DNA of 64,000 nt, taken from contig CBDCYI010000004.1 in assembly GCA_965224085.1 (NCBI GenBank), positions 1,728,001 to 1,792,000 on the forward strand. Direction: 5' to 3'. The notes beneath the pieces are model-generated. The model worked only from the letters and a program-made list of their open reading frames with translations. It searched no databases and was not told where the DNA came from. This document shows, piece after piece, positions 11,960-64,000 of the stretch. This DNA comes from Candidatus Marinacidobacterales bacterium. GTDB taxonomy: Bacteria > Acidobacteriota > Vicinamibacteria > Marinacidobacterales > SMYC01. The position numbers and the translations under genes were made by a program. How positions within the stretch are numbered: position 1 is the first letter of the stretch; each line of letters opens with the position of its first letter.

Positions 11960-11963
11960 GGTC

Positions 11964-47395: not shown

Positions 47396-47411
47396 TGGCA
47401 CACGGATTGCT
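47396..47411 (+). promoter_or_regulatory. sigma54 (-24/-12) promoter upstream of wzc
   Basis: TGGCAC-ACGGA-TTGCT is a perfect match to TGGCAC-N5-TTGCW, in an AT-richer intergenic region. Confidence 0.75.
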
Positions 47412-47517
47412 ACACAAGCGAAGCGGGTCCACTTTCGAATTTCATTGGAAATCCAACACACAGCACGTTTTAAGACCACGTCTCTGCCGAGCGTTTTTGA
47501 TTCAGTAGGTTCATGGG

Positions 47518-49817
47518 ATGGAGCTGAAAAAGAGCGAACAGATGTCCAACGCGAATTGGACTCCTCCACCAATGCCGACATCCGAGCCGGAGTCAGCCGA
47601 GTTCCATCCTCCCGAATCGGAGAAGCACCTGAGGGACTATTGGTACGTTATCTTGAAGCGCCGCTGGGTCATCCTCGCGGTTTTCGTTTCGGTCCTGTCC
47701 TACACCGCGGTAAAAGCGCTCATGCGCCAGCCGGTCTATAGCGCGTCCACCGTCCTCCAGATCGATCGCGGCAAGATCAATCTTGTCCAGGACGTGATGG
47801 TTCAGGACTACTGGAGCGGCTACGACGAGTTCTACCCCACGCAGCAGCGCGTTTTGATGAGCCGCAATCTTTCGCGGGGCGTCGTCCGAAGCCTCCGTCT
47901 CTGGGAGCAACCCTATTTCGGAGGCGACAAGACGCACACACCGGACGAGCAAACCGTGGAGGGTCTCGCCGGGCGCGTGGTCGGGATGCTGCAGGTCACG
48001 CAGATTCGGAATACACAGCTCATGGAGCTGAAGTTCACGAGTACGGATCCGCAAGTCGCCGCGGATCTCGCCAATGCGCTCGCACGACAATACATGACGT
48101 TCAGCATGGAAAAAGAGACGACCCTCGCTCGTGACACCGCCGGTTTCATCCGCGAGCAAGTCGAGAAAATACAAGTCGAGATTCAAGAGCGGGAGCAGCT
48201 TCTTCAGGAATACAGCCAGCGCCAAGACCTCATGATGGTCGATGAAAAAGAGCTCCTCGTCATGCGACAGCTCCAAGATCTCAACAGCGCCGTCGCGGTG
48301 GCGCGCACGTCGCGAGCGAACGCGGAAGCCAAATATCGGAGTCTTCGGGCGGCTGACACGCAAATACTACCTGCGGTTCTCGCGAACCCGACCGTCCAGG
48401 GCCTCGTGCAGCAACGCGGCGTGCTCGAAGGCCAAGTCGCCGAGCTCGCCGCCAAGTTCAAGGACGACTGGCCGGATCTGCGCCGCGCCCGCGAAGGGCT
48501 CGCCGACATCAAGAATCGGATCGAAACTGAGCGTAGAGCTTTGACGGTCGACGTCGTGGCGAAGGCCCGGGTGGAGTATCAGGCCGCTGTCAAGCGCGAA
48601 ACCCTCCTGCTCGCGGAAGTCGAAGCTCAGAAGCGAGAAGCTCAGAAGCTCAGTAAGCTCACGACAGATTACAGTCAAATCAAAGCCGGGATTGACAACC
48701 AACGTTCCATGCTGCAGCAGCTGTTACGCAGGCAATCCGAGACGGGTCTGAGACGGGTCTGAGTGCCGAGCTCGGAGCGCGGGAGCCCGTGAACGTCCGC
48801 ATCGTGGAGGCGGCGCTCGTTCCGAAAGCACCCTCCGGCCCGAGCCTTTCGCGAAGCCTATTGCTCGGCAGCGTCGTCGGTATCGCACTTGCCCTCGGAC
48901 TCGCGCTGTTCCTCGACTATTGGGAAACGAGCATCTACACGATCGAGGATCTACGCCGGCAGGTGCCGCTTCCCTATATGGGGATGATCCCTCGACTTAA
49001 TTCCGACACCATTTCGCGCTGGGACGCTCTTGCGGCAGGCGCGATGGCCCCGCACGGCAAGAACATGAATCACACACGCTCGGCACTTGCCTTGTCGCAA
49101 AGCACCAAAATCGCTTCCCGTGCGAAGGAAGACATGTCGCTGATCGCGGAGCGCTTCAAGTTTCTGCGCGGCTCGCTCTTGCTGTCCACGCCCGGCCACC
49201 CGCCACGAACCGTTATCGTAACGGGTCCGGACAAGAACGCTGGCAAAACGTTCGTCGCTTGCAACCTCGCGACCTCGCTTGCCGATCTGGACAAGAAGGT
49301 TCTTTTGATCGACGCAGACCTCCGCAACCCCCAGATCCACAAGGTCTTCCGGTTCAAAAACCGCGTTGGCCTTTCGAGTGTCCTGTCGGGGCAAACGGCG
49401 GTCGAGAAGGGATGCGTCTTTTCGACGATCATTCCGAATCTCTACGTGCTGCTCGCTGGCCCCCCCAGCCCGACTCCCGCCGAACTTCTCGGCTCGAGCA
49501 AGATGGAGGAGACGCTCGAGCAGTGCATGCAGCTTTTCGACTACGTGCTGCTGGACTCGGCGCCTCTCTTACCTGTTTTCGACTCTCACTATCTCACCGT
49601 ACGCGCCGACGCCAACCTCCTCGTCGTCCGGAGCGGACACACTTCGAGAAATGCTGTAAGCCAGAGCCTCGACTTGATTGATCGCGTCGGTGGCAAGGTC
49701 ACGGGGGTCATCTTGAACGACGTGAACCTCGCGGACTACGCTCAGAATTACTATTACAGCTATCACAGCTACGAGTACGGGACTTACGGCGAAGAGCCGG
49801 CGCGAAAGGTCAGTTAA
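47518..49817 (+). pseudogene. wzc: Polysaccharide co-polymerase/tyrosine autokinase, split by an 11-bp tandem duplication at 48739-48760
   Basis: HLRDYWYVILKRRW, coiled coil, Walker A GPDKNAGKT, LLIDADLR, LLDSAP, Tyr cluster YYYSYHSYEYGTY; GAGACGGGTCT x2. Confidence 0.9.
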
Positions 49818-49848
49818 TCGTGCCCCTCACCCGCATCGTTCTCGCCTG

Positions 49849-51033
49849 ATGCCTTCGGTGACGGCCCCCGGGCTCGACAAGCTCACGAGGGCATGCGCCA
49901 AAGAGCTCGCTCAGGGCGCACCTTCCGACTATTTTGTGCGCTCCGAGGTCGAGCGGCTCTCCCCCCTCCTTTATTACGGGTTCGACCGTCTCGGATGGCC
50001 CGACACCGTCCCAGAGGATGAACGTCACCACTTCCGCAAAGCTTACTACGCGAGCGCGGGCCGAAACGTCGAATTGTTGGACGCTCTCGGTAACGCAGCC
50101 GAGGCCCTCTCGGCACGGGATATCCAGACGATCGCAGTGAAAGGCGCGGAGCTCGCGACCAACGTTTATCCGAGCGTCGCACTCCGCCCGATGAGCGATA
50201 TCGACCTCTGTGTGTCGCCCGAGCAGGGCGAAGCTGCGGAGGCTACATTGACGGAGCTCGGATACCGCCCCTATGCGCCGGAAATGACTCCGGGGCTCGC
50301 GCGGAAGACACGGCACGCAAAGTTGTTCATCGGTGGTGCTCGGGACAACATCGCCATCGATCTGCATTGGTCGTTAGTCGGCGGTCTCGGCGACACTCGC
50401 GCACCCCATTACGATTGGCTTCGCGACAATACCGTGAGAAGCGACGCGCCCTACGAGCGGCTTTCGGAGACGGCGCATCTCGCTTATCTGGCCGCACACA
50501 TGAAGCTTCAGCACTACGACGAAGAGATTCCACTCCTGTGGCTCGTCGATTTCACGCTTCTCGCTTCTTCGTCCTCGATGGAGTGGGAGGTGCTCTTCGC
50601 CGATGCGCGCGCTCTTGGGTGGAGCGACGCGCTGGCCGCAACGGCCCGCGATGTGCAACGACGCCTGGGTGCCGATTTGCCCGAGCCGCTCGTGCGGTTC
50701 ACTGACAGCTGGCCGCTGCTGCCGCAGATAGCGGAACTTCATCGGCGGGACGGCCGCGACGAGCCCGAGCGCGTTTGGAACGAGCTCACCACGCTACCCT
50801 GGCACGCACGTTGGGCGCTCCTCTGCGCTCTCGTTCTACCGTCGTTGAGCTACATGCGCTTCCGCTATCCCTCGCTGCCTAGTTGGGCATGGCCGCTCGC
50901 TTATCCGCTTCGATGGGCCCGATTCGTAGCTAAATCTGCAGCGCTCGCTAAGAGGTATGTAGGCCGCGTTGTGCACCGGGAAACACGAACGAAACCGCTT
51001 CTCGCGTCCCCGGATCGCCGCAAAAGCTGGTAG
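49849..51033 (+). CDS. Uncharacterised nucleotidyltransferase (NTP_transf_5-like)
   Basis: AVKGAELA..YP..ALRPMSDIDL, IDLHW, LLWLVD. Confidence 0.88.
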   Translation: MPSVTAPGLDKLTRACAKELAQGAPSDYFVRSEVERLSPLLYYGFDRLGWPDTVPEDERHHFRKAYYASAGRNVELLDALGNAAEALSARDIQTIAVKGAELATNVYPSVALRPMSDIDLCVSPEQGEAAEATLTELGYRPYAPEMTPGLARKTRHAKLFIGGARDNIAIDLHWSLVGGLGDTRAPHYDWLRDNTVRSDAPYERLSETAHLAYLAAHMKLQHYDEEIPLLWLVDFTLLASSSSMEWEVLFADARALGWSDALAATARDVQRRLGADLPEPLVRFTDSWPLLPQIAELHRRDGRDEPERVWNELTTLPWHARWALLCALVLPSLSYMRFRYPSLPSWAWPLAYPLRWARFVAKSAALAKRYVGRVVHRETRTKPLLASPDRRKSW

Positions 51034-51068
51034 AATCTAGGCATACACTAATACATAGGTACAAATGC

Positions 51069-52011
51069 GTGGCTGTGAATTTCGCTGCCTGTAAAACTAC
51101 GCCTTTCGGCGCTCGCTATCTGAAAAACCCAGCCATGTTTCCCCTTGGTTTGGACGGAGAATCGTGGGGAAGCCGCGAGCTATCGCTCGGGGTCTTGGAC
51201 AAGCGGTTTCTCGTATGCGGGCTCAGCGCGGCTCAGGAACATACGATCCGAAGCTTGTGGCCCCGCTTCGTCATCGACGATCCGGACCGCGCGGACGTGG
51301 CGCTGTTCGTGCACCGCGCACCGACGTCCATCTTTATCAAGTTCGACCGCTGGGAGTACACCCTCGATTTCGATTACACGACGAAGTCGCTCTCGATGGC
51401 GGGATTGGATCTCATGGGGCGACTCGAGCTCGTGCCCGAGCTGCGCGCCGCACTTTGGGTGGCAACGGAAGAACACGATCTGTTTCACAGCGCTTTCGAG
51501 AACTTCTTGCGAATCCTCGTCGCCTACGCGGCGCTCGATCTCGGAGGCGGGTTGTTTCACAGTGCTGCCGTCGTGGAGGGCTACTCGGCTTGGCTATTCG
51601 TCGGCCATTCCGGCGCAGGCAAGTCCACCGTCTCCCAACTGGCGCTCGACTCCGGTCGCGCTGTTTTGAGCGATGATTTGAACCCGGTCCTGCCGAATCC
51701 ACGCGGCGGCCTCGACCGTCGTCGGGAGCCCTTTTCTCGGCGACGAAGGCGCCCGCGCGCCGACGCGCCACGCGTTGAACGCCATCTACCGGCTGGAGCA
51801 AGGCGCAAGAGACGGCGTAAGAACGATGGGCGAAGCCGAGACGCTCGCTTCACTCATGGCATCCTCGCCCTATCTCAACCGCGATCCTCACCGGACCGAA
51901 ACGCTGTGCAAAAACCTAGCGACCCTCGCGGGGCGTGTCCCGCAGCGCGTTTTGACTTTTCGGCGCGATGGAACGATCTGGCCCCTCCTCGAACGGAACG
52001 GGGCAAAATAA
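51069..52011 (+). CDS. HprK-related P-loop kinase, with a one-base frameshift near 51712
   Basis: LFHSAAV, GHSGAGKST, LSDD; the shifted frame continues VVGSPFLGD..AIYRLEQG..LTFRRDGTIW to TAA 52011. Confidence 0.8.
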
Positions 52012-52065
52012 TTTGAAGTCAGATATTTAGATCAACGTTTTCTTGCAGTTAAAGGAGCAACTCTG

Positions 52066-52353
52066 ATGATCGACAGGTCGCTTGTTCTCAAGCGTAGGGA
52101 TGACGTTCGGTACCGGATCGTCGGTGATGAGGCGGTTGTGATTCGGCAAAGTGCGGCTGAGGTTCTAGCTCTCAATGACGTGGGGGCGCGGGTGCTCGAG
52201 CTCATCGATGCGGGAGAGACGATGGGCGCTTTGATCGACACGATGGTCGAGGAATACGATGTCGGGCGGGAAGATCTCGCTCGTGACGTCGTGGGGTTCG
52301 TCCAATCGATCCGCGAGGCGGGCATCGTCGAAGGCGTCTCGAACCCGTCGTGA
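52066..52353 (+). CDS. PqqD-family RiPP recognition element (RRE)
   Basis: 95 aa; YRIVGDEAVV..LALNDVGARVLELIDAGET..EEYDV..DVVGFVQSIREAGIV; RBS AAGGAG. Confidence 0.92.
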   Translation: MIDRSLVLKRRDDVRYRIVGDEAVVIRQSAAEVLALNDVGARVLELIDAGETMGALIDTMVEEYDVGREDLARDVVGFVQSIREAGIVEGVSNPS

Positions 52354-53459
52354 GCTACGAGGCAACCGTCGTCCGAGCGTGGCAGGATTTTCATCTGTTT
52401 TCAGCTCTGCTCGAGCTCACTTATCGATGTAACCTCGACTGTTCGTTCTGCTATAACGACCTGGAGCTCGAAGGCGAGCCGCTTCGATTTTCCCAATACG
52501 AGCTTTTGCTCGAGGAGCTTCGCGAGCTCGGCTGTTTGCATCTAGGCCTTTCCGGCGGGGAGCCGTTGGCTCATCCTGATTTTTTTGCGATCGGCAAAAG
52601 AGCTCGCGAGCTCGGCTTCGTGACGCGTATCAAGTCGAATGGCCACGCGCTCGGCGGCGAGATTTTGCGCCGCGTAGAGCGCGAAGTCGATCCCTTCGTC
52701 GTCGAGATAAGTCTTCACGGAGCTATCGCGAGAACCCACGATCGCCAGACGCGCGTCAGCGGGAGCTTCGATCGCCTGATATCGAACCTGGCCGAGATGC
52801 GCGAGCGTCACTTGCGTGTCAAGCTCAAATGCGCGTTGACCCGGTGGAACGAGAGCGAGATCGAAGAGATGTTTGCGATCGCCGACAGATTCGAGATGCC
52901 GCTCGTGATCGACCCAGAGGTCACACCCCGCGACAATGGAGACCTCGAACCGTTGCAGCTCACCGCGTCGCCCGAAGGCTTGAAGCATCTCGTCGCGGTG
53001 CAGTCACGACGTGCGCTCGCGGCGCGCGCCGAGATCGCACGCGAAGGAGAGGCCGACGCCCCGGACTCAGACAGGCATTGTGGGGCTGGAACGGCAGGCA
53101 TCGCCGTGGACCCCTACGGAAACGTCTATCCCTGCGTCCAATGGCGGCGTCCGATTGGAAACGTTCACCAGAGCCGCCTCGCCGATATCTGGAGTGACAA
53201 CGCGCGACTCGATGAAATCCGGCATTTGACGGTCGAAGCGAAGTCGATGCTCGGTGATAGGGAGGAGGCGCCGTTGCTCGCTTTTTGTCCTGGTATCGCG
53301 GAAAGTCTGACCGGCGATCCTCTCGTCGTGCCCGAAGCGGCCTCGAAACGGGCGGCAATACTCGCGGAAGCGGTTCTCCCTCTACATCCATCTAGCCGTC
53401 TCAGAACGTCTCTCGCTGTCCCTCCCGATCCCACCGTTTCGATAAAATCAACTACATAG
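52350..53459 (+). CDS. Radical SAM enzyme with SPASM/Twitch-type C-terminal domain (true C-terminus may be near 53390)
   Basis: ELTYRCNLDCSFC, SGGEP, SNG, CGAG..VDPYGNVYPC, FCPG; GTGA overlap with pqqD. Confidence 0.92.
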   Translation: MSYEATVVRAWQDFHLFSALLELTYRCNLDCSFCYNDLELEGEPLRFSQYELLLEELRELGCLHLGLSGGEPLAHPDFFAIGKRARELGFVTRIKSNGHALGGEILRRVEREVDPFVVEISLHGAIARTHDRQTRVSGSFDRLISNLAEMRERHLRVKLKCALTRWNESEIEEMFAIADRFEMPLVIDPEVTPRDNGDLEPLQLTASPEGLKHLVAVQSRRALAARAEIAREGEADAPDSDRHCGAGTAGIAVDPYGNVYPCVQWRRPIGNVHQSRLADIWSDNARLDEIRHLTVEAKSMLGDREEAPLLAFCPGIAESLTGDPLVVPEAASKRAAILAEAVLPLHPSSRLRTSLAVPPDPTVSIKSTT

Positions 53460-53499
53460 AGATATCGCCGTTCGCGAGCCGCAGCCTCGCAAGAAGAGG

Positions 53500-53690
53500 T
53501 CATGCTCTGTCCGGCGACCGGAGCTTCTCCAGGAATCTGCCCATGTGAGGGTGGCTACGGTCGAGTGGGACTGCGTCCTTGTGAAACCATCGTACGCTCC
53601 GAAACTCGGATTCATCGAACACTAGGTTCTGCCTACGGTCACCCTTCATGACGTACCAGAGGCTCACACCGGTATGACCCGCCAACAGAT
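53500..53690 (-). pseudogene. C-terminal fragment of a NUDIX-like hydrolase
   Basis: AGHTGVSLWYVMKGDR..FDESEFRSVRWF..HPHMGRFLEKL; no N-terminus. Confidence 0.5.
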
Positions 53691-54020
53691 ATCTGCTACG
53701 ATGAGCCACTTTTGCCCGCCCGAAACTCGGCTTCGAAGGAGCATGTGGGCGCAATTCGAGCGTGACGTTGAGCGAGGTGCTCCGACGAGGCCGGGTCGTC
53801 ACGTGGTTTTCCGGATATTCACGAGGAATCGAAGCTACAGGTTTCGTGCGTGGTGGTGCAGCCGACGCGAAGGATGACGACGAGCCGACCTTTCTTGCAC
53901 TCAGGGCGGACGTCGGATTCGGTATCGGTGCCTACGGAGTATGGGGCTGAGGGGAGCGTTCTATACTCGCGGAGTGGTGCTTCCTCTACATCCGGTACAG
54001 CGCAGCTGATGATTAGGCCC

Positions 54021-54200
54021 TTACGATCTCTGGGCGAGGGGACAGGTGCCTACCGTGGCTTTGGCGGGAGGCGACGGGGTGCACAACGCGGCCATGGCTT
54101 CGAGGGGTTCGCGGTAGAGTATCTCGGGACGGCGGTAGGCCTTTTTCTTGGCCGTCCCGTTCCCCCGCTCCTTCTTGTTGCGACTGTTGTCTTGCTTCAT
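54021..54200 (-). CDS. Candidate RiPP precursor peptide, 59 aa: MKQDNSRNKKERGNGTAKKKAYRRPEILYREPLEAMAALCTPSPPAKATVGTCPLAQRS
   Basis: Translated by hand (not in the ORF track, whose shortest entries are 60 aa); AGGTGG RBS 4 nt before ATG; KKKAYRRPEI leader motif; Cys40/Cys53; next to PqqD and rSAM genes. Confidence 0.8.
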   Translation of the reverse strand: MKQDNSRNKKERGNGTAKKKAYRRPEILYREPLEAMAALCTPSPPAKATVGTCPLAQRS

Positions 54201-54257
54201 GGATCCACCTGTTTTTCTAGTTTGATAACACGCTCTTTCCGGACATCGTCAGGACAG

Positions 54258-55428
54258 TCAGTGGGCTAGCATCATGAAGAAGTTCACCATTAGCCGATTC
54301 TTCTCGAAGAGGACGACGTTCGAGCGGCGTTCCAGATACTCCGTAGTGACGCCGACGTCCAACCCCCGGCGTATCCTACAAGTGAGCGAGAGACGATAAG
54401 TGATGTGCTCGTCCATGATTCGCCTATGGAGCTGCCACCGAAAAGAGCCGCCGAAGCGTTGCTCGATGAAGTAGGAGTTCTTCACTGAGAACGGACGTCA
54501 CCGCGTCGCGGGAATAGATTCCCGCCAGCCGATGCCCCCCACTCGCAACGTACGTGACGTCCACGGAACCGATGAGGCCCGCATATTCGACACGGTTCGC
54601 ATCCACGGGGATGAGTCGGCGAAAACCGAGAAGAAGTTGCCCGGAGAGGCCTGCGGAAGGGCTCAAGGGTACGATGGAGCCCGACGACAATGTGGGAGAA
54701 AAATCAAAGCCGGCACGCATCCCGTAAGAATCACTATCCCGGGTCGGGTCGTCGATATCGAGCTTCTCGTAGAAGATGTCGGCGAGGGCGTTCGTTTTGG
54801 CGCTCACCCGGCGTGAGAGATTCATGGATACGGAGTCTCGGACGAAGTTGAGACGATCGAGGATGGTGCTGTCGTCGTTCGGTGTCTGGATGATCCTCGA
54901 TCGCGTTTGCTCGTAGCGTGCGCTGAGTTGGTGACGCCATCCGAGTGCTAGAGTCATCGCCGCGTCGAACTGGTTGGTGCGCATCTCGACAGGAAAGTCG
55001 AACTCCGTGCTGGGCCGGCGGATGTCGTCCCGAAACTCGTTGTTGATTTGAAGTAGATAGCGGCGCCCACCCCAGCCTCCGCCGAGACGGGTGATGTCGA
55101 AGATGCGGCGCAGGTCGGCGTTGTTCTTGTAGTAAACGAAGTCGACTTCTTGGAACATATCGAGAAACGCATTCGAGCCCATGGGCACAGCGAGCCGTAT
55201 CCCGGGTCCGAGTAGCGCGGCGATGTCGGACTGCGCCGCCGGCGTCGACAGAGCATTCGAGTCGTATCCACCGGAGAATCGAATGCTCGGGGTGGCGTAG
55301 AAAGGACCGAGCTCGAAGAATCCGCTTCGCACGTCAGTAAGGCGCTCTTCGATGAGGTCCACGGATTGGGCGGCGGCCGGAGCGGCGACGAGCAGCGCTA
55401 AGAGCGTGAGACGAAAGCTCCACATCAC
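54258..55428 (-). CDS. EPS-locus outer-membrane beta-barrel protein, frameshifted near 54485
   Basis: Signal peptide; GPFYATPSIRFSGGYDSN; alternating beta-strand pattern; continues NSYFIEQRFGG in another frame. Confidence 0.7.
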
Positions 55429-56585
55429 GCGGCGCCCAGAATGCGACCCACGGTCGTATTTTGAAATACCGCGTCAATCAAACCGCGGTGCCAGTCGAAA
55501 TTCGCCTTCTCCCGAATCAAGCTCGCGAGCCCTTCGCGCCGGGCTAGAGACATGAGCCGCTCGATGCCCCAGTCGCTCATGAGCTTGAAGCTCCGCCGGA
55601 GCTTGAGCCCAGTCTCGATCTCATCCTGCAGAAGATCCCGCCACCGCTTCTCGTACGCGCCGAGGGTCGAGCTGTCGAGACGATCTCGCTCGAGCCCAAA
55701 GGCGATAACGTCGGCCGCGATTTCTCCCGTCAGCATGCCGTAGTAAATGCCGCCGCAAGTCGTCGTCTTGATATGGCCGGCCGCCTCGCCGACGACGACG
55801 ACCCGATCCGCATAGCTCTTCGACAAGAATCCAAGAGGAAGGACACTCGTGCGGGTCTCGCCGGCCAGCCCGTTGATGTCGATGCGCTCCGCAATGTCGG
55901 GCCGCGACAAGAAACGCTTGAGCACGCGAGGTCCGTCGCGGCGACACAGAAGGCCGACTTTCGATCGTTGCCGTCCCAAGGGCACGATCCACGCGAAACC
56001 CTCCGGTGCCCATTTGTGGCCCAAATAGACTTCCACGTGCGATGCAGGAAGCTCCAGCTCGGTTTGGACACCCAAGAGCTTGGCAGGAATGTCGTCGAAG
56101 CCGAGCTTGCTCAGAAGCGGCATGCCGGCTCCCGTCGCCACGACCACCACGCGGCACCTCAGAGCCTGTGGCTCCAAGCCCGCGCCTACGGACACGGTCA
56201 CAGCGACGCCTCCAAATACGTTGCGGATGTCGGTGACTCGATGCCCCAACAAAACGGTCGCTCCAGCTTCGCATGCCACGACGCCGAGCTCCGCATCGAA
56301 CTCGCTCCGATCGACGACGTGGGCGAGCGGGGTGTCGGTTCGAAACTCCCAGCGCACGCCTCTCGGTGAGACGAACTCCACGCTGTCAAGGCTGTGGCGT
56401 ACGAGACGCGACGACAGATCGAAACGTCCGAACGCTTCCAAGCCGATAATGCCGCTGCAGTTGACGGGGCGTCCAATCTGGACGTGCTCTTCGAGAACGC
56501 CGACATGGAATCCGGCGCGCGCTAGGCTCGCGGCGGCCGTCAACCCGGCCGGCCCCGCGCCGACGATGAGCACATCAAATTCATC
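55425..56585 (-). CDS. Geranylgeranyl-reductase-family FAD-dependent oxidoreductase (start uncertain)
   Basis: DVLIVGAGPAG, PVNCSG, DRSEFD, FAWIVP, VGEAAGHIKTTTCGGIYY. Confidence 0.85.
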   Translation of the reverse strand, partial: DEFDVLIVGAGPAGLTAAASLARAGFHVGVLEEHVQIGRPVNCSGIIGLEAFGRFDLSSRLVRHSLDSVEFVSPRGVRWEFRTDTPLAHVVDRSEFDAELGVVACEAGATVLLGHRVTDIRNVFGGVAVTVSVGAGLEPQALRCRVVVVATGAGMPLLSKLGFDDIPAKLLGVQTELELPASHVEVYLGHKWAPEGFAWIVPLGRQRSKVGLLCRRDGPRVLKRFLSRPDIAERIDINGLAGETRTSVLPLGFLSKSYADRVVVVGEAAGHIKTTTCGGIYYGMLTGEIAADVIAFGLERDRLDSSTLGAYEKRWRDLLQDEIETGLKLRRSFKLMSDWGIERLMSLARREGLASLIREKANFDWHRGLIDAVFQNTTVGRILGAA

Positions 56586-56593
56586 TTTAGCGG

Positions 56594-57214
56594 TCAGAGC
56601 TTCTTCTCCCTTACTTCCCACTTGCCGCGGAAGGTAATCCAAAACGACAGGAAAATGAGTTTGAGATCGAGCCAGAACGATCGATGGTCGACGTAGAGGC
56701 GATCGAAGCGAAACTTCCGCCGGCGTGAAATGTCACGCCGTGCGTAAATCTGCGCGATCCCGGTGAGCCCGGGAACGACCGCATGCCGCTCGCCATAACC
56801 TGGGATATCCGAAAGAGCCACGTTGCCGCCGCCTCCGGTCTCGGCTTCGTGAGTCGCGAGCGCTCGAGGGCCGACAAAAGACATGTCTCCTCGAAAGATG
56901 TTCCAAAGCTGGGGCAGCTCATCCATCGCCGTCTTGCGGAGCACTTGGCCTATCGGGGTCACGCGCGGGTCGTGTTCTTGAGCCTGCACGGGACCTTCTG
57001 CGCCATCTGCGTTTAGGATCATCGATCGAAATTTGAAACTCCGGAAAGGCTTGCCGGCCTTGCCCACCCGATCCTGGGCGAAGAAAACCGGGCCACCATC
57101 GCCGAGCTTGATGGCAAGCGCGATGAGTCCACCGAGGGGCGTCGCGAGCACAAGCCCGGTTGCTGAAAGCGCGACATCAAGGCCTCGCTTCGCAAGCGGC
57201 GTGGGCTCGAGCAC
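56594..57214 (-). CDS. Priming sugar-phosphate transferase (bacterial sugar transferase family)
   Basis: KRGLD, FKFRSM, DPRVT, DELPQLWNIFRGDMSFVGPR, PGLTGIAQ. Confidence 0.93.
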   Translation of the reverse strand: MLEPTPLAKRGLDVALSATGLVLATPLGGLIALAIKLGDGGPVFFAQDRVGKAGKPFRSFKFRSMILNADGAEGPVQAQEHDPRVTPIGQVLRKTAMDELPQLWNIFRGDMSFVGPRALATHEAETGGGGNVALSDIPGYGERHAVVPGLTGIAQIYARRDISRRRKFRFDRLYVDHRSFWLDLKLIFLSFWITFRGKWEVREKKL

Positions 57215-58419
57215 CGGGCTCGAGAAGCTCGGCTTCGAATAGGTCGTGATAGGCTCGAGCTTGCTTCCGGCGGTCGAACTGAACACCGGCTCTTCGAGCG
57301 TGGCCGCCGAGCTTGCGGGTGAGTTCTCGATCGCGGTGAAGCCGCGTGATCTCATCGACCATTCCTCCAACGTCGCCCGGGGCAACGACCGCCCCGCAAT
57401 CATATTCGCGGGCAATCGAGGCGACTTCTGTTTCCGGCTCCACCGCCGCGACGTAAGCGCGGCCCGCTGCCAGAATTCCGTAGAGCTTGCTGGGCACGAT
57501 GTAACCCGCAAGCCCGGCTTTCAACGAAACGATGAACAAGTCCGCCGAGGCATAGGACTCCGTCATCCGATCTCTCGGCTGGTACGGAAGAAAGAGAACG
57601 TTTTTCAGCTCGCGGCAACGCACGTCATCCACGAGAGCCTGTCTTCGGACGCCATCGCCAACGAGTAGAAAAAGGATCTCCTCGCGTGATGCGAGTTGCG
57701 CGGCTGCTTCGACCACCATGTCGAGATTCTGGGAAAGCCCGAGATTGCCCGACGACGAATCGGTCCTCGAGCCCGTGCTCTCGAGAGAAGGCGTTGTCCT
57801 TTTCGCCCGGCGTCACGATCGAGGTATCTGCCCAGTTGTGGATGACGGTGATTTTCTCTGGATCGGCGTTCTTGCCGTCGACGAGCCGGCGCTTCATGCA
57901 CTCACCGAGTGCGACGATGCGGTCGGCCCTACGCACGAGAAAGACGTTCACGCGCTGCAACACGGCGTTGACCGTCTCGCTTCGAAAATCTTCGAGAAGG
58001 CTCGCAACTTCGGGAAACACGTCCTGGCACAAGAAGACGAAGCGCGCACCCATCCGTTTGGCCGTCATCCACGCGACGAGCCCGATAATCGGCGGATCGG
58101 TCAGAGCCACGACAACGTCTGCCGGCGGGAGACGGAAGCTCGCCCACGTCGCCGCAAGAAAATATGACACGTAGTTGACGAATCGCCCCAAGAAGCCTCT
58201 CGGGGCGAGCCGCGTGCTCTTGGCGCGAAGGATCGTGACGCCTTCGTGCGTTTCAGAAACGCTGAGACCACGAGGAGCGGCCGCGCCCGGTGCCGGGCCG
58301 GCGACCACTGTAACCTCACAATCATAGTCTCGCACGAGGTCTTGGGTGAGCTCGCTGAGAAGCTGCCCCGTCGCGCCGAGGTCAGGGTAGTATGAGCGGT
58401 TGAAGAACACGACACGCAT
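57177..58419 (-). CDS. GT4 glycosyltransferase, frameshifted by a small deletion near 57750
   Basis: YYPDLGATGQL, TDPP, QDVFPE, HNWAD, GNLGLSQNL, VPSKLYGILAAG. Confidence 0.85.
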
Positions 58420-58422
58420 CAA

Positions 58423-59406
58423 TCAGCGCCTCGCCTGCTCCGAAACCACGTTCTTCACGAGCTGGGCTTCCCGAAACCAAGCGATGGTCCTCGAAAGGCC
58501 TTCGCGAAACCCGGTCGTCGCGCGGAACCCGAAGGTCGTCGCGGCCCGATCGACGCTCAGGCAGCGCCGCGGCTGCCCGTTGGGCTTCGTCCTGTCCCAG
58601 AGAATCTCGCCGGCAAAGCCAATGAACTCGGCGATGAGCGTCGCCAGATCCTTGATTGAGATTTCGAAACCGGCGCCGAGATTGACCGGCTCGGCGCTGT
58701 CATAGGCCATCGTCGCCGCGACCACGCCTCGTGCGCAGTCCTCGACGAAAAGAAATTCTCGCGTGGGCGATCCGTCGCCCCAACAGACGAACTCGCGGTC
58801 GCCGCGCTCAATGGCTTCCTGGCATTTGAGCACGAGCGCTGGGATCACATGGGAGCTCGCGGGATCGAAATTGTCCCACGGTCCATAGAGATTCACCGGC
58901 AACAGATGAATCGCGTTCATCCCGTATTGAGCCCGATAAGCTTGCCCTTGCACGAGGAGCATTTTCTTCGCGAGCCCGTAGGGCGCATTCGTTTCTTCTG
59001 GATAGCCGTCCCAGAGGTCGTCTTCTGAGAAGGGCACTCTGCTGTGCTTGGGGTAGGAGCAAATCGTACCGACGCTTACGAACTTCTCGACGCCGTTTCG
59101 GCGCGCATATTCGATGAGCTGAACGCCCATGATGAGATTCTCGTAGAAAAAGCGGCCAGGATTCTCCCGATTCGCGCCGATGCCCCCGACGACCGCGGCA
59201 AGATGGATCACGATGTCGGGCGCATGGACGCGATAGAGCCTTGCAACCGTCTCTTCCGCGGTAAGGTCATATTCCGCGGAACGTACGATAACGACGTCCC
59301 GCGCACCTTGCGCGATGAGCTCTTCGTAGACGTGGCGGCCGAGAAACCCACCCCCGCCAGTGAGCACGATCCGTTTCGAGCCGAGATCGATTGGCGGTTT
59401 CTTCAT
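58423..59406 (-). CDS. fcl: GDP-L-fucose synthase
   Basis: [59 protein letters not shown]. Confidence 0.93.
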
Positions 59407-61209
59407 GACGCTTGTCTCGTTTCCGCGACTGCGGGGGCCGGCACGACTTTCCGCTTGTCAAAGCGCTTCTCGAGGACATGGCTTCCGAGAACGAGCACGT
59501 CCATATCCGTTCGCAAAAAACAGTCGATTGCCTGTCGTGGCTCGTGCACGATGGGCTCGTTCTCGTTGAACGACGTATTCAGGAGCACCGGAACGCCGGT
59601 ACGCGTTTCGAAAGCCTCGAGGAGCCGATGGTAGATTGGGTTTTGCTCCCGACTGACCGTCTGCAATCGCCCAGAGCCATCCACATGAGTTACCGCCGGT
59701 AACACGTCACGCTTGTCTTTCGCAACCGGGTAGACTTGAAGCATGAACGGATCGGGGAGGGCGCCTTCGAAGTAATCGTCCAGCCGCTCTTCGAGGATCG
59801 ACGGTGCAAAGGGCCGAAATTTCTCACGACGCTTGATCTTCGCGTTCAAGATATTGCGCATGTCGGACCGTCTGGGATCCGCGAGGATGCTGCGATTGCC
59901 CAACGCTCGCGCTCCCCATTCCATGCGGCCTTGAAACCAGCCGACGACCTTCCCCGCCGCCAACTTCTCCGCGGTCCAATCGGTCAGCGCGTGAAGCTCG
60001 TGCATCTGCTCGGCCGCGCACGCGCGCTCGAGCTCACCGTCGCGTCCCCGCAGGGCCGCGAGCACGCTGGCATCGTCGAAGGCCGTACCCCAGTAGCCGT
60101 GCTCCATGGTGAACTTGCGGGGCTTTTTCAGAACTTGATGCCACACGAAATAGGCGGCGCCGAGCGCAGTACCGTTATTCCGCGGCCGCGGGCTGGATGA
60201 AAACGTTCTCGAACGGGGTCTCGGCGCGAAGCTTCCCATTGGCAACGCTGTTCATGGCACATCCACCAGCGAGGCAGAGCCGTTTCGATCCGGTACGCGC
60301 GTGCAGCTCTCTCAGAACGTGAAAGGCTGATTTTTCGAAGACTTTTTGGAGCGACGCGGCAATCGCGTGATGCCGCGTTGTCACCTCTTCGTTCGGCGCG
60401 CGAGCGGGGCCGAGCAGCTTTTCGAGCTCTTCGGTAAAAACCTTATCGATGGTGGGCGCCCCGTCACCCCAAGTCATCACCACCTTTTCGGAGCCGTGGC
60501 GGAAATAGCGCATGACGAGTGAAACCTGTCCGTTCTTCTCGAGCCGGACTAGCTTCGAGATCGCCTCTGCGTATTCGGCCTCGCCATAGGGTGCGAGCCC
60601 CATGACCTTGTACTCGTCTCCGTAGCTCGGAAAGCCGAGGAACTGCGTGAACGCAAGATAGAGAAGTCCCAGGGAATGCGGGAAGTAGGTGCGGGCGTGA
60701 ACGTCCAAGCTGCTCCCCGTTCCGTGCGCCATCGACGTACTCACAAAATCACCGAAGCCGTCGATGGCGCAGACGGCCGCCTCCTCGAAAGGCGAGACGT
60801 AGAACGCGCTCGCCAAGTGTGCCGGGTGGTGCTCTACATCGTGAAAGCGCGCTCGAACGTGGGACGGCGAAAGAGAAAGCGTGTAGGCGACCTCCTCGAC
60901 GACGCCTCGCACTTTGGACTGGTTGCGCAAACGGTCCCAAAGAAACGAAACGTTCGGCTTACGGCAAAGCGCGTAGAGAAACTTCCGGCTTATGTGAGCT
61001 TTCGGATCCCTCGAGACGGCGAAGTAGTCGATCTCTTTTCCGTTGATGCCCGCGATCGCGAGGCAGGCGCGGATGGCCTCCGAAGGAAACCCAGCACAGT
61101 GTTTCACGCGGCGAATGCGCTCCTCTTCGACCGCGGCGATGAGCCGCCCATACGAGATCAACACGGCGCTCGCGTCGCCGTGATAGGCGTTGATGCCGAG
61201 AATGTTCAT
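59403..61209 (-). CDS. NodU/CmcH-family carbamoyltransferase, frameshifted near 60178
   Basis: [65 protein letters not shown]. Confidence 0.92.
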
Positions 61210-61408
61210 AGGTCGACTGGCTGGAGAAGCCTCCCCGTAAGACCGAAGTCCCGGAATCGGCGTTTCGCGTGATTTAGAATTGAATCGGATGATTGAAGCT
61301 TTGATTTAATTATACGCAACGGATAAATGGGTGTAAATCCCTGCATGCACGTGCCCACCCGCACAGAATGCTGTATTCTATGAGCACACCCTTTTCAATC
61401 AAGGAATC

Positions 61409-63271
61409 GTGAGTCAATTTTTTTTGTGGCTGCCGTTTTCGCCTGGGCAGCAGGTACGACGGACCATCTCCGAGATGGGACGCGCAAGCCGCTCGCAGCC
61501 AGACGAGCTCGAAGACCATTGCCAGCTGCCGGACCTCGGCGTCGGAACGCTCGAGCGGGACAGCGCACCGTCAGCACAGCCCGCGACGCTCGCCGGACAC
61601 CATTTATGGTTCTTCGGCGAAGCCTATGACGGCCATGGGCTCGGCAACGTTGAGGCGGTTGAGGCGGTCGAGGCCTTCGACTTCCGGCGAAAGCTCCTCG
61701 AGCTCGTCCTCGATCAAGGACCCGACGTCTTGCGAGCGCTGGATGGCGCGTATGTCGTCGCCCTTTGGCGAGCAGAGAGCACAACGCTCAGAGTCGTGAA
61801 CGATCGTTACGGCACCCTCCCTCTCTACTGGTCCAACAACGGCGACGGCTTCGCCATGGCCAGCACCGTCCGAGCCATATTGATGGCCCCGGGAGTCGAG
61901 CCTATGCCGGACATCCAGGCGCTTCGTGAAGCCGTGACTTTCGGAGGCTACCGCCTCGGAGAGCGTACCAACGTCGAAAACGTGAAAATGCTTTACGGAG
62001 GGACCGAGCTCTCTGTGCGCGGCAACACGGTCACAAAGAAGCGCTACTGGAGCTATGCGGCGATCGAAGAACGCGACTCTGGACTCGACGTCGACGTGCT
62101 GATCGAGCAAGCAAGCGAGCTCTGGACCCGAGCGATCAGGCGTCGCTTGCCGCGAAACGGGCGATCGGGGCAGACCTTGAGCGGCGGCCTCGATAGCCGC
62201 GCCATCCTCGCCGAAGCGGCGCCTTCGTGTCCTGAATGGGTCGCGGTGAGCTACGGCCTTCCGAATAGCGATGACGTCCAGATCGCGAAACGCGCTGCCG
62301 AAGCTTCCGGCGTAGCGTGGGTCTACCACGATCCTTATATGCGCGAGCCGCACTGGCTCGAATCCCGCACGAGCTTCGTTCAACAGACGGACGGGCTCAT
62401 CGACCTGACGGATCTGATGCACGTCGCTTCCGTCCACGCACAGGCCCAACAACTCGACGTGCATTTCAGCGGTTATATCGGAGACGCCGTGTGCGGCCCC
62501 ACCTTCACCGATGTCGAAAACGCTTTGGACCTCAAGAGCGCCCTTCCCTTTTACGGGACGCGTCTCGGGATGGACGATGTCGACGCCGAGCGCCGGATCG
62601 AGGAGATCGTCGCAGGACTTTCCGGCGCTCCGCCTCGTTTCGCGCTCTTCGAGCACAAGATCCCACAATCGACGAATCGATGGGTCGACGCGTGGCGGCC
62701 ATGGCTCGCGGTACGGCGGCCGTTTCTCGATTACGACCTATTCGATTTCTGGCAAGGCTTGCCGGTCACGCTTCGCCGTGAAGGTCGCCTATACGAACGC
62801 TGGCTGACGCACCGCTTTCCGGAGCTCTTCCGAACGATCCCGAACCAGAAAGACATGGTCCCCGTTCTCAGCTCACCACTGCGTCGCCAGATCGTTCGAA
62901 GCGTTCGCTTTGCGACACGCAAAGTGCTCGGAGTGGTGAATCTGAAGACACGCTCGCGCAGCTATCACGATGAGCACGGGCACTGGTCCCAGCCAAAGAA
63001 TCGGAGCCGGATCTAAGAAGCGATTCTTCGCCCGGAATCGGTGTCTTGCGACGTCTTCGGGCGCAACACCGTCCGAGCGTTTCTCACACATTGGTTCGAG
63101 ACGAGCTTGAACCCTACCCAAGTGATCGGTGCCTTATACGTCTTCGAGACCTATCATCGCGACCTCGCGAGTCATCTTGGAGAAAGTGCGCAGAAACAGC
63201 ACGAACAAGCTCCGATCACGATGCTCGAGACAGCGCCGCCAAGAACCGCTCGCGAAAACGGGCCGCCGTAA
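61409..63271 (+). pseudogene. Asparagine synthetase-like amidotransferase with in-frame TAA at 63014-63016
   Basis: LDGAY, NDRYGTLPLY, LSGGLDSR, RRPFLDYDL; ORF 63041-63271 is in the same frame. Confidence 0.8.
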
Positions 63272-63735
63272 ACTGCGTTTCGAATCGCCTTCGGGCCTCG
63301 GCGCCCATCGCGCGCCTTTTTTCGGGCTTTCCAAAGAGCTCGACGATGAGGTCTGCTAGTCGCTCTTTGGCGTCGAGTGCATCGGGGGCGACGACGAACC
63401 CCGTCACGCCGTCTTCTATGATCTCGCTCGGAGCACCTTCTCCACCGATACAGAGTTTGGAAGCGCGCATGGCTTCGAGAAAGACGAGGCCAAAGCCTTC
63501 GCCGCGGCTCGGCATGATGAAAAAGGCGCACTCGCTGTAGAGCTTCTCGAGCTTCTCGTCATCGACCGTACCGACAAAGCGAATGCTCCCCGAAAGCTTC
63601 AACGCGCGCGCCTTGTTCTCGAGGCGATTCCGATCGTTTCCGCCACCCACCACGACGAGCTCCGCGTCGGGGTGGCGCTCGGCAACGTCGTCCCAGATTT
63701 CGAGCAGAAGATCGTGTCCCTTGTACTCCGAAGAG
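63216..63735 (-). pseudogene. C-terminal half of a GT4 glycosyltransferase
   Basis: YKGHD, MPSRGEGFGLVFLEAM, DGVTG; N-terminal half replaced by unrelated sequence. Confidence 0.8.
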
Positions 63736-63918
63736 GAACGAAGGGACGAACATCGATGGGAGCCCGAAGTCCAGATAGGCTTCCGCCGCATATCCGAAAG
63801 CGATGCTCGTACCTTGCTCCGCCCCGGCGACAAAAACCCCGGAATAGGTGCGCACCATTTCACTGTCCGATAAAAGCGCGCCTTTGTCCGGAAAGAGAAT
63901 TCTCGGTGTCACGACCAA
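63736..63918 (-). pseudogene. Internal fragment of a Wzy-like polysaccharide membrane protein
   Basis: TPRILFPDK..GTSIAFGYAAEAYLDFG..F. Confidence 0.5.
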
Positions 63919-64000
63919 ATCCTCATCCCCCCCGGGCTCCTGAGCCCTAGACGAGATACAGTTGTGGATGAGCTCAATCTTCTCGGCAGGAACGCCCGAC

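Follow-up and report, generated by a model that had tools for sequence, protein, structure and literature searches.

A probable RiPP-type maturation module in an envelope polysaccharide locus of Acidobacteriota

Kinases that phosphorylate the C-terminal serine of lasso peptides are described as carrying a His-Lys-Asp-Asp motif (PMC9266682), and PsmN, a member of an uncharacterised nucleotidyltransferase family, is reported to be required for placing a hexose on the serine phosphate (PMC6993621). The SynChlorMet cassette, of which we found no mention in the literature searched, brings together an HprK-like ScmC kinase, a PqqD-like protein and radical-SAM/SPASM enzymes, its models naming two radical-SAM genes (TIGR04250/04251, ScmE/ScmF). 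SkfB and CteB (sactipeptide/ranthipeptide), as well as PqqE and MftC, are RRE-dependent radical-SAM enzymes that combine a twitch/SPASM auxiliary domain with a short, Cys-containing peptide. PorU is described as cleaving a C-terminal signal and attaching anionic lipopolysaccharide to its cargo (PMC8545088, PMC4560394). Each of these systems shares features with a locus in the 64,000-nucleotide stretch of DNA analysed here (the window), which an earlier note had read as a RiPP-type maturation cassette set into an exopolysaccharide locus. The features of this class are indeed present in the precursor, the PqqD protein and the radical-SAM enzyme, and we consider it likely that the region is a module for RiPP-type peptide maturation that forms part of an envelope polysaccharide locus of the Wzc/Wzy type and represents a large, unnamed and almost purely acidobacterial family. 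On the best reading of the data the module is new, extends across the phylum Acidobacteriota and is linked to loci for envelope glycans; it has similarities to both the SynChlorMet cassette and the kinase/nucleotidyltransferase pair of lasso-peptide clusters, and belongs to neither.

Scans with Pfam and NCBIfam models recovered all genes named in the earlier note in the order given there (Table 1). The gap between wzc and the nucleotidyltransferase gene is exactly the 31 bp that had been claimed (49818-49848, + strand), the radical-SAM gene overlaps the PqqD gene by 4 bp, and the 59-aa ORF is, as proposed, the final gene of the convergent polysaccharide operon on the - strand. The region had been drawn to position 63271; the carbamoyltransferase gene however extends only to 61209, and the asparagine-synthase-like gene beyond it, which had gone unnamed, has homologues in none of the 80 related loci described below. 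The wzc product exceeds the cut-off for Wzz (PF02706) with 30.3 bits and, at 154.8 bits, that of 108 for the tyrosine autokinase model TIGR01007. Together with the priming transferase and the glycosyltransferases, the Wzc autokinase accounts for the features of a Wzx/Wzy-type locus present in the window, with wzc and the GT4 gene frameshifted. Neither Wzy_C nor Poly_export was detected in the window by tblastn, and Wzy, Wzx and Wza were not detected by Pfam among the ORFs scanned; these functions may lie beyond the window, as the locus runs past its end at 64000.

Table 1. Features of the maturation module and the surrounding polysaccharide genes in the window
Feature	Position	Strand	Basis and state
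wzc (chain-length determinant and tyrosine autokinase)	47518..49817	+	split into ORFs 47518-48762 and 48789-49817
NTP_transf_5 nucleotidyltransferase	49849..51033	+	intact; PF14907 E 1.5e-45
ScmC/HprK-type P-loop kinase	51069..52011	+	frameshifted near 51717; tblastn, fold model, weak profile matches
PqqD-family peptide chaperone (RRE)	52066..52353	+	PF05402 E 2.4e-14, 53.9 bits (cut-off 23.4)
Radical-SAM/SPASM enzyme, reduced (twitch-like) SPASM	52350..53459	+	Radical_SAM PF04055 E 7.9e-17; SPASM PF13186 E 2.1e-8
59-aa precursor peptide	54021..54200	-	AGGTGG 4 nt before ATG; conserved family
BBP2_2 outer-membrane barrel	54258..55428	-	frameshifted near 54481-54545; PF10082 23.9 bits (cut-off 23.7)
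Geranylgeranyl-reductase-family flavoprotein	55425..56642	-	TIGR02032 189.8 bits (cut-off 158.8)
Polyprenyl-phosphate sugar-phosphate (priming) transferase	56594..57511	-	Bac_transf PF02397 E 5.7e-59
GT4 glycosyltransferase	57177..58422	-	frameshifted near 57742-57752; N and C halves in separate ORFs
GDP-L-fucose-synthase-like (fcl-like) epimerase/reductase	58423..59406	-	Epimerase PF01370 E 3.8e-54; NF047922 274 bits (cut-off 500)
Carbamoyltransferase	59403..61209	-	frameshifted near 60178-60191; Carbam_trans_N and Carbam_trans_C in separate ORFs
Asparagine-synthase-like gene, outside the conserved cassette	61409..63016	+	Asn_synthase and GATase_7 matches

Among 8000 proteins scored, 2013 matched the radical-SAM family at E<=1e-3, the best 120 of which are all at least 54% identical. 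From 388 loci in GTDB species genomes we kept 80, of which 78 are acidobacterial by record label. The conserved core consists of kinase, PqqD, radical-SAM enzyme and peptide; the kinase was found in 73 of the 80 loci and PqqD, adjoining the radical-SAM gene, in 77. As the core is present in nearly all of these loci, and as the arrangement recurs at 53-80% protein identity in two of them (L001 and L016), we regard it as going beyond chance. The expectation of the earlier note that homologous cassettes would adjoin polysaccharide genes in relatives was borne out: among the 40 loci flanked by 9 kb or more of sequence on each side, 35 (a raw count) have Wzy_C, Bac_transf, Poly_export or Wzc no more than 10 kb away. 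NTP_transf_5 occurs in 33 of these fully flanked loci, Wzy_C in 30, Bac_transf in 21 and Poly_export in 13.

In most relatives the nucleotidyltransferase, Wzy_C, a SipW-like peptidase, the kinase, PqqD and the radical-SAM enzyme are encoded in one operon, with median same-strand gaps of 19-104 bp (upper bounds) and with NTP_transf_5 typically located some 4 kb upstream of the radical-SAM gene. The coupling of the maturases to a wzc operon, on which the earlier note had built, thus holds for the window but not as a rule, the order wzc, nucleotidyltransferase, kinase, PqqD, radical-SAM being found at only 3 of the 80 loci. Similarly, the reported absence of a leader peptidase, ABC exporter and immunity gene stands for the window ORFs scanned, and tblastn retrieved no SipW-like, B2-like (at E<=1e-3) or C25 gene from the window; candidate peptidases are, on the other hand, encoded in most relatives (a SipW-like protein in 37, a PorU-like C25 protein in 22 and a lasso-B2-like protein in 17 of the 40 fully flanked loci).

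The 59-aa ORF, put forward in the earlier note as the precursor partner of the cassette, is a real gene. It occurs in single copy in the window and matches no Pfam or NCBIfam family, and its own family comprises at least 1222 database clusters at 90% identity (650 at 50%), all of them unnamed. A member was found by tblastn at 60 of the 80 related loci and by HMM at 10 more, that is at 70 of 74 testable loci, since six of the remaining ten end less than 100 bp past the radical-SAM gene. The gene is always convergent to the radical-SAM gene, at a median distance of 78 bp. The peptides are 53-68 aa long and consist of a variable N-terminus, a leader motif [YWF]xxPxI[LVT] (177 of 180 peptides) and a strongly conserved C-terminal half of about 30 residues that contains two Cys and an invariant Lys and ends in Ser. 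The Cys-Cys spacing is 13 in 173 of 180 peptides and the terminal Ser is present in all 180 checked; the tail of the window peptide deviates from the GPISS ending of the family and is one residue shorter. The core peptide is near-invariant across classes of Acidobacteriota.

This invariance throughout the phylum, in combination with the operon fusion that relatives show to genes for Wzy_C, a priming transferase or PorU-like proteins, points to the product having a housekeeping role alongside the polysaccharide at the envelope rather than to an antibiotic. The gene directly ahead of the peptide gene on the same strand encodes a PorU-like C25 protein at 27 of 60 loci, Bac_transf at 9 and the barrel at 3. 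At 19 of the 60, the peptide gene lies alone beside a divergent gene with no polysaccharide or C25 gene ahead on its strand, and none of the four polysaccharide markers was found in 5 of the 40 fully flanked loci. These loci and the varying architecture of the neighbouring genes would fit, and the raw marker counts would allow, an ordinary stand-alone RiPP, such as a secreted signal or antimicrobial whose cluster merely tends to lie near envelope genes that contribute neither to its biosynthesis nor to its function. We nevertheless hold this to be rather unlikely, as the core is nearly invariant across classes, unlike antimicrobial cores, as the window showed neither an exporter nor an immunity gene among the ORFs scanned, and as Wzy_C and NTP_transf_5 are packed closely together with the maturases in one operon at most of the fully flanked loci.

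Within the module, PqqD would bind the leader and hand the peptide on to the radical-SAM enzyme. The predicted complex of PqqD and peptide lends weak support to this binding, with an ipSAE of 0.50 against 0.00 for the best of three controls, a result that may reflect PqqD-leader complexes already solved; the runs agreed in at least 93% of contacts, with a partner pLDDT of at least 52. Of 157 solved complexes 116 reach the 0.50 mark, as do 2 of 215 mismatches; only 18 of the 157, and both mismatches, do so at an ipSAE of at most 0.60. A natural PqqD-peptide fusion protein (P0372) is present in the database, and its model has low confidence in the peptide part (pLDDT 55-75).

The radical-SAM enzyme exceeds the cut-offs of both PF04055 and PF13186. 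In the family alignment the three Cys of the CX3CX2C motif (C27, C31, C34) are invariant, and since only three further invariant Cys follow (C244, C262, C313), the SPASM domain is classified as reduced. The closest solved relatives are PqqE (3.8e-20), SkfB (4.6e-15) and CteB (1.4e-10). Unlike these enzymes and MftC, the protein reaches no curated model at its cut-off and has three conserved Cys behind the core; the best NCBIfam matches, NirJ, MftC (3e-25) and PqqE (5.6e-24), all lie far below their cut-offs, and the type of reaction is therefore a guess. With its presumed single-cluster, twitch-like domain, the enzyme would most likely cross-link the peptide through one or both Cys, in the manner of a thioether. 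A different outcome, which we consider improbable, would be a cofactor-like small molecule cut from the conserved C-terminus of the peptide, as for PQQ or mycofactocin, and used by an envelope or polysaccharide enzyme. Mycofactocin is oligoglycosylated, and the invariant, Ser-ended C-terminus, the presence of a PqqD chaperone, the ranking of MftC and PqqE among the named models and the position of PqqE as best solved relative would all agree with such a product. The distance of those scores from the family cut-offs argues against it, as do the extent of the conserved part, which with its two invariant Cys and Lys exceeds what a cofactor precursor needs, and the lack of a partner redox enzyme conserved with the core in the related loci.

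Under the reading as a cross-linked envelope peptide, the kinase and the nucleotidyltransferase would act on the C-terminal Ser. In sequence the kinase bears only a weak likeness to HprK. The window copy matches TIGR04355 at E 0.0068 and the intact L001 copy ScmC (TIGR04249) at 9.3e-8, and the NCBIfam assignment of the kinase to HprK/ScmC lies below the curated cut-offs. The predicted model adopts the PEPCK/HprK P-loop fold; all of the 50 fold matches listed are PEPCK, HprK itself being absent among them, and the closest atlas clusters carry the Pfam annotation ScmC. H156, GAGK(S/T) with K177, and SDD with D194 and D195 are invariant or nearly so in the family and match the His-Lys-Asp-Asp motif of the lasso kinases. 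Both features by which lasso-type tailoring of a C-terminal Ser is recognised, this motif in the kinase and a Ser-ended precursor, are thus found here, and the likeness to PadeK, ThcoK and the PsmK/PsmN pair extends to an uncharacterised nucleotidyltransferase, PsmN being comparable to NTP_transf_5 (PF14907) by description only, and to a PqqD-type RRE. In contrast to those clusters, the module has a radical-SAM enzyme instead of a lasso cyclase, no ring-forming acidic residue in the core, an invariant core and a home in the phylum Acidobacteriota.

By analogy with paeninodin and pseudomycoidin, the kinase would phosphorylate the C-terminal Ser and the NTP_transf_5 protein would be needed for adding a further group, possibly a sugar, to the phosphate. 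A covalent link by which the peptide primes, caps or decorates the polysaccharide is suggested by gene linkage and analogy and is unproven. In a more far-reaching version, to which we assign a low probability, a ribosomal peptide cross-linked by the radical-SAM enzyme would prime or cap the polysaccharide: the kinase would phosphorylate the Ser, NTP_transf_5 would start a phospho-sugar link, and a Wzy_C-type ligase, or a PorU-like transpeptidase in other lineages, would couple the peptide to the undecaprenyl-linked polymer. Such a peptide-polysaccharide conjugate would, if real, be of a hitherto undescribed kind.

The window copy itself may be inactive, since the kinase gene and five of its neighbours carry lesions; when compared with an intact syntenic relative, six genes between 45.3 and 61.2 kb contain a frameshift or stop. 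One frameshift each splits wzc, the kinase, the barrel, the GT4 gene and the carbamoyltransferase. In wzc the reading shifts from frame +1 to frame +3 within 48723-48750, where an 11-nt unit is tandemly repeated (48739-48760), and the L001 counterpart is a single ORF of 763 aa. In a tblastn search with the L001 kinase, frame +3 covers residues 2-208 as far as 51716 and frame +1 takes over at 51718 with residues 209-302; the conserved His, GAGK(S/T) and SDD positions all lie 5' of the frameshift. The L001 barrel (427 aa), GT4 (418 aa) and carbamoyltransferase (621 aa) likewise each align to the window in two frames. Six lesions, together with a spacer of 561 bp between the radical-SAM and peptide genes compared with the median of 78 bp in relatives, might suggest that cassette and polysaccharide genes were mis-joined in assembly or that the 59-aa ORF arose by chance. 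Such an artefact is very improbable: L001 and L016 have their genes in the same order all the way from the Ser/Thr kinase gene to that of the carbamoyltransferase, and with it the whole 45-61 kb layout, the GC content stays flat (0.57-0.63 across the window), and the peptide family has hundreds of members.

The comparison with lasso pairs, SynChlorMet and HPr-rel-A cassettes drawn in the earlier note is apt as an analogy; as a family assignment it fails on the cut-offs. That the region is a lasso-peptide cluster, with the asparagine-synthase-like protein as cyclase, is scarcely credible and we reject it: the best NCBIfam matches of PqqD are lasso PqqD models (3e-9), the putative cyclase matches its model at 1.8e-13, kinase/nucleotidyltransferase pairs are known from lasso clusters and a B2-like gene occurs in several relatives, but the cyclase model NF033535 is matched with 50 bits against a cut-off of 525 by a gene that the related loci lack, the window has no B2 gene, and no Asp or Glu follows the conserved LEA in the precursor alignment to form a macrolactam ring at position 7-9. 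SynChlorMet shares with the module a kinase, a PqqD-like protein and radical-SAM/SPASM in one cassette, and ScmC is the best NCBIfam match of the intact L001 kinase. The scores nevertheless fall short of the cut-offs (ScmC 31.7 against 125 for L001, ScmF 66.8 against 400, ScmE 61.4 against 400), ScmD (TIGR04248) is not among the matches of the window PqqD, and the module differs in its single radical-SAM gene, its own precursor family, its NTP_transf_5 partner and its polysaccharide-locus setting; membership was rejected. The same applies to HPr-rel-A, with 19.7 against 200 for TIGR04352 (L001 kinase) and 20.1 against 35 for TIGR04353.

A likeness to PorU concerns those relatives in which the peptide gene directly follows that of a C25 protein, here 1350-1760 aa long. 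PorU is the best NCBIfam match of this protein (2.8e-62; 210.7 against a cut-off of 420), and the comparison with type IX secretion covered the C25 gene, which the window lacks. Two C25-peptide fusions are present in the database and may be read-through gene calls.

Listing of the open reading frames together with Pfam and NCBIfam scans bears out the gene map drawn in the earlier note, including the 31-bp gap that separates wzc from the nucleotidyltransferase gene on the same strand (see table). Downstream of the carbamoyltransferase gene, the minus strand encodes an fcl-like epimerase/reductase, a GT4 glycosyltransferase, a Bac_transf priming transferase, a flavoprotein and a BBP2_2 barrel, and ends in the 59-aa ORF, the candidate precursor peptide, which translates as MKQDNSRNKKERGNGTAKKKAYRRPEILYREPLEAMAALCTPSPPAKATVGTCPLAQRS and whose ATG has the sequence AGGTGG 4 nt upstream. 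The flavoprotein is common only to the window and two related loci, L001 (the intact syntenic relative used as reference) and L016; it could, speculatively, act on a polyprenyl carrier lipid.

Features of the locus and of its surroundings in the window
Feature	Coordinates	Strand	Observation
ISAZ013-family DDE transposase	9320-10561	-	E 4.6e-138
wzc	47518-49817	+	Wzz, 30.3 bits; TIGR01007 (autokinase), 154.8 bits vs cut-off 108
NTP_transf_5 nucleotidyltransferase	49849-51033	+	E 1.5e-45; intact
P-loop kinase	51069-52011	+	frame-shifted
PqqD chaperone	52066-52353	+	E 2.4e-14; intact
Radical-SAM/SPASM enzyme	52350-53459	+	4-bp overlap with PqqD; intact
100-aa ORF	53500-53802	-	coding-like GC3
59-aa ORF (candidate precursor)	54021-54200	-	57 bp after BBP2_2 barrel; intact
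Geranylgeranyl-reductase-family flavoprotein	55425-56642	-	above NCBIfam cut-off; inside polysaccharide operon
Carbamoyltransferase	59403-61209	-	first in transcription order of the listed minus-strand genes
Asparagine-synthase-like protein	61409-63016	+	N-terminus without Cys nucleophile
Glycosyltransferase	63216-63999		two overlapping ORFs in different frames

In agreement with the earlier note, no peptidase or exporter was found among the ORFs scanned in the window; the first 45 kb, which hold housekeeping genes and a single ISAZ013-type transposase, likewise yielded neither, nor any Wzy_C or C25 gene. The transposase gene adjoins genes for the E2 and E1-beta components of a 2-oxoacid dehydrogenase, beside which no E1-alpha gene was seen. 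Rfam returned no family at gathering score over the whole window, and a scan of 53300-54600 gave no promoter-like and one terminator-like site, not above shuffled sequences. Pfam searches with the small or partial ORFs at 51775-52011, 53500-53802, 54258-54485, 63041-63271 and 63559-63999 gave no match; the 100-aa ORF among them, which lies in the spacer between the radical-SAM and peptide genes (53460-54020, 561 bp), may be a gene remnant. The asparagine-synthase-like protein is encoded among the polysaccharide genes on the opposite strand; its N-terminus lacks the Cys nucleophile that glutamine-dependent asparagine synthases typically have.

More than 2000 relatives of the radical-SAM protein were found in the database; among the top 120, identity is never below 54% and length ranges from 328 to 395 aa. 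When GTDB genomes were scanned, one per species, 388 radical-SAM loci emerged, and the 80 best were kept together with flanks of at most 10 kb per side. All but two of these (from Myxococcales and Chromatiaceae) are labelled Acidobacteriota, the 78 including Thermoanaerobaculia, Holophagales and Vicinamibacteria. Using tblastn with the window proteins (E≤1e-5), the kinase was detected in 73, PqqD in 77 and the 59-aa ORF family in 60 of the 80 loci, and an HMM built from the peptide alignment (A2) recovered the peptide in 10 more. Since six of the ten peptide-less loci stop less than 100 bp after the radical-SAM gene, the peptide is present in 70 of 74 testable loci; in L047, L057, L073 and L080 it is absent even in a relaxed HMM search. 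In L057, where the radical-SAM gene is present without the family peptide, another small ORF whose leader is of YxxPxL type lies next to a PqqD-like ORF (11110-12364, minus strand). The peptide gene is opposite in strand to the radical-SAM gene in 70/70 loci, and the distance between the two has a median of 78 bp (10th-90th percentile 16-236 bp; 60 tblastn-positive loci).

At 90% identity the peptide family forms no fewer than 1222 clusters, every one hypothetical or nameless and none with a Pfam domain; at 50% identity it has 650 representatives (E≤1e-3). Its nearest ESM-atlas clusters are unnamed, and neither Pfam, NCBIfam nor the atlas provides a name for the peptide-cassette family. A full-text literature search, whose reach mostly excludes subscription journals, returned nothing on the cassette, nor did the term 'SynChlorMet' occur in the texts it covered.

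Conservation within the peptide is low over the N-terminal 20-30 residues and strong from the leader motif onwards, with P25, L33, E34, A37, C40, K47 and C53 (window numbering) as invariant columns of A2. Scoring of 180 sequences (60 locus peptides and 120 database peptides) showed a C-terminal Ser in every one, a last Cys 7 residues before the C-terminus in 179, the leader motif [YWF]xxPxI[LVT] in 177, a Cys-Cys spacing of 13 residues in 173 and the ending GPISS in 168. The tail of the window and L001 peptides is deviant, shorter by one residue, and nevertheless terminates in Ser. Among the database proteins, P0372 (155 aa) naturally combines a PqqD domain and a family peptide in one chain, and P0255 and P0371 (714 and 1426 aa) are Peptidase_C25 proteins with the peptide at their C-terminal end. 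The latter two retain an internal Met ahead of the peptide and might stem from read-through in gene calling.

Neighbouring genes were counted by tblastn (E≤1e-6) in those 40 loci whose flanks extend 9 kb or more in both directions; our own gene calls with single-linkage clustering merged unrelated genes and served just for choosing representatives. A SipW-like peptidase occurs in 37 of the 40, NTP_transf_5 in 33, Wzy_C in 30, a PorU-like C25 protein in 22, Bac_transf in 21, a second PqqD in 18, a lasso-B2-like peptidase in 17, Poly_export in 13 and Wzc in 3. One or more of the markers Wzy_C, Bac_transf, Poly_export and Wzc occur in 35/40 loci, a raw count uncorrected for chance; L021, L046, L048, L072 and L075 have none of the four. 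In the common layout, NTP_transf_5, Wzy_C (sometimes with TPR repeats), a small signal-peptidase-I-like protein (TIGR02228 at 1e-8 to 7e-10, under cut-off), the kinase, PqqD and the radical-SAM enzyme follow each other on one strand with median gaps of 19-104 bp (upper bounds). The window's arrangement of wzc, nucleotidyltransferase, kinase, PqqD and radical-SAM genes, with the barrel ahead of the peptide, is shared with L001 and L016 only; wzc is also present in L015. Across 60 loci, the gene just ahead of the peptide on the same strand encodes C25 in 27, Bac_transf in 9, a barrel in 3 and another protein in 1, with only a divergent gene preceding the peptide in 19 and a contig end in 1. Kinase, PqqD, radical-SAM enzyme and peptide form a conserved four-gene core with genetic linkage to genes for envelope polysaccharide, and the cassette family is a widespread, nameless one of RiPP type with an unusual and consistent polysaccharide context. 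A mis-assembly joining the cassette to the polysaccharide genes is very unlikely, given the synteny with L001 and L016 and the flat GC content (0.57-0.63 across 40-64 kb).

About 17 of the 40 relatives harbor a second cassette near the first (for example L003 11736-14131, L005 11804-15214 and L068 3529-8078), consisting of a DUF3344-like protein, a 168-aa PqqD, a lasso-B2-like peptidase (NF033537, 8.7e-18) and an HprK-related kinase A-like protein (1.6e-16), with no sign of a lasso cyclase. Two large conserved proteins of ~870 and ~650 aa, without Pfam or NCBIfam match, are encoded between Poly_export and the nucleotidyltransferase in 18/40 and 21/40 relatives, respectively (for example L003 900-3521 and L009 3689-5701).

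The radical-SAM enzyme features the CX3CX2C triad (C27, C31, C34), followed by just three further invariant cysteines in alignment A1 (C244, C262 and C313), with C262 located in a CX17C stretch with G-x4-C. This pattern would fit a half-SPASM, twitch-like domain with one auxiliary cluster. The protein scores below every curated NCBIfam cut-off (best NirJ, 110.6 bits vs 515, and MftC, 89.1 vs 265), and its best solved relatives are PqqE, SkfB and CteB. In the kinase family, a His, GAGK(S/T) and SDD are invariant (alignment A4). The AlphaFold model of the kinase (pLDDT 93) matches ATP-PEPCK (E 4e-8, TM 0.45), which assigns it, at the level of predicted structure, to the PEPCK/HprK P-loop fold class; a sequence-profile search of solved structures returned P-loop matches only, with HprK itself at E 0.41. 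ScmC is its best NCBIfam match, and in the atlas cluster closest to it 56% of the proteins carry Pfam ScmC. Lasso-cluster kinases of this type are described as carrying a His-Lys-Asp-Asp motif and phosphorylating the C-terminal Ser of the precursor (PMC9266682), and in pseudomycoidin a nucleotidyltransferase of an uncharacterised family is subsequently needed for 1-2 hexoses on that Ser phosphate (PMC6993621).

A predicted complex of PqqD and the peptide scored 0.50 in each of three runs (best of three controls, 0.00), a mark reached by 116/157 solved complexes and 2/215 mismatches, with scores of 0.60 or under obtained by only 18 of the 157 solved complexes plus both mismatches. The runs agreed on 93% or more of the contacts, and the partner's pLDDT was 52 or higher. 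As similar complexes have already been solved, this pass may reflect likeness, and the prediction lends weak support to binding of the peptide by PqqD. In the model of the P0372 fusion (from A6) the PqqD part is confident, while the peptide part has pLDDT 55-75 and no contacts are given, so that it is uninformative on docking. In a MAFFT alignment of P0372 with PqqD proteins and peptides (A5), the leaders were misaligned onto the PqqD C-terminal helix; the stretches look alike by eye, which may be chance.

Taken together as a pathway, PqqD would present the peptide leader, the radical-SAM enzyme would cross-link the core, most simply via Cys40 and/or Cys53, the kinase would phosphorylate Ser59 and the nucleotidyltransferase would enable further addition on the Ser59 phosphate. 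In most relatives the leader could be removed by the SipW-like, B2-like or C25 peptidase, possibly by a cut behind the Ala-rich stretch preceding Cys40. The module resembles a SynChlorMet cassette to which C-terminal tailoring of the lasso type has been added, but falls under the curated cut-offs of the SynChlorMet, HPr-rel-A and lasso families. The resulting product might be a peptide acting with or on the polysaccharide, or alternatively a stand-alone signal or a cofactor-like molecule; the phylum-wide invariance of the core appears to fit cofactor or structural peptides, unlike antimicrobial RiPPs. The boldest reading, a covalent peptide-polysaccharide conjugate, we consider improbable. A lasso cluster can be dismissed: the asparagine-synthase-like protein is far under the cyclase cut-off (50 bits vs 525) with homologues in 0/80 related loci, no B2 gene was found in the window, and an acidic acceptor is absent from the peptide core.

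If the module works in this manner, it defines a large RiPP family, with peptide clusters in the hundreds and 388 loci at species level, and would offer a testable non-lasso substrate for the widespread ScmC/HprK-type kinases and NTP_transf_5 proteins. The near-invariant core and the genetic fusion with polysaccharide assembly genes suggest that a ribosomal peptide is a permanent element of the envelope or biofilm matrix in the Acidobacteriota, a phylum that is dominant in soil and poorly cultured, and the cassette makes peptide-linked exopolysaccharide in bacteria a directly testable question.

The copy in the window is possibly defective. Lesions were called against L001, which shows the same gene order from a Ser/Thr kinase to the carbamoyltransferase with proteins 53-80% identical; the closest genome compared at the DNA level has 67% radical-SAM identity. 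Six genes are disrupted, all within the region syntenic with L001 (45286-61209); judged by their length and Pfam coverage, the long ORFs of the first 45 kb appear complete. The Ser/Thr kinase, a single ORF of ~650 aa in L001 and L016, carries an in-frame TAG at 46594-46596, and in the cassette kinase the reading frame switches from +3 to +1 at ~51717. In wzc the frame changes from +1 to +3 at 48723-48750, coincident with two tandem copies of the 11-nt unit GAGACGGGTCT (48739-48760); this duplication accounts for the +2 shift. The BBP2_2 barrel, GT4 and carbamoyltransferase genes contain one frame change each. These six lesions may be real mutations or assembly faults; the nonsense codon and the 11-nt duplication are unlike typical homopolymer errors. 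The two overlapping ORFs of the glycosyltransferase at the end of the window likely mark a seventh break.
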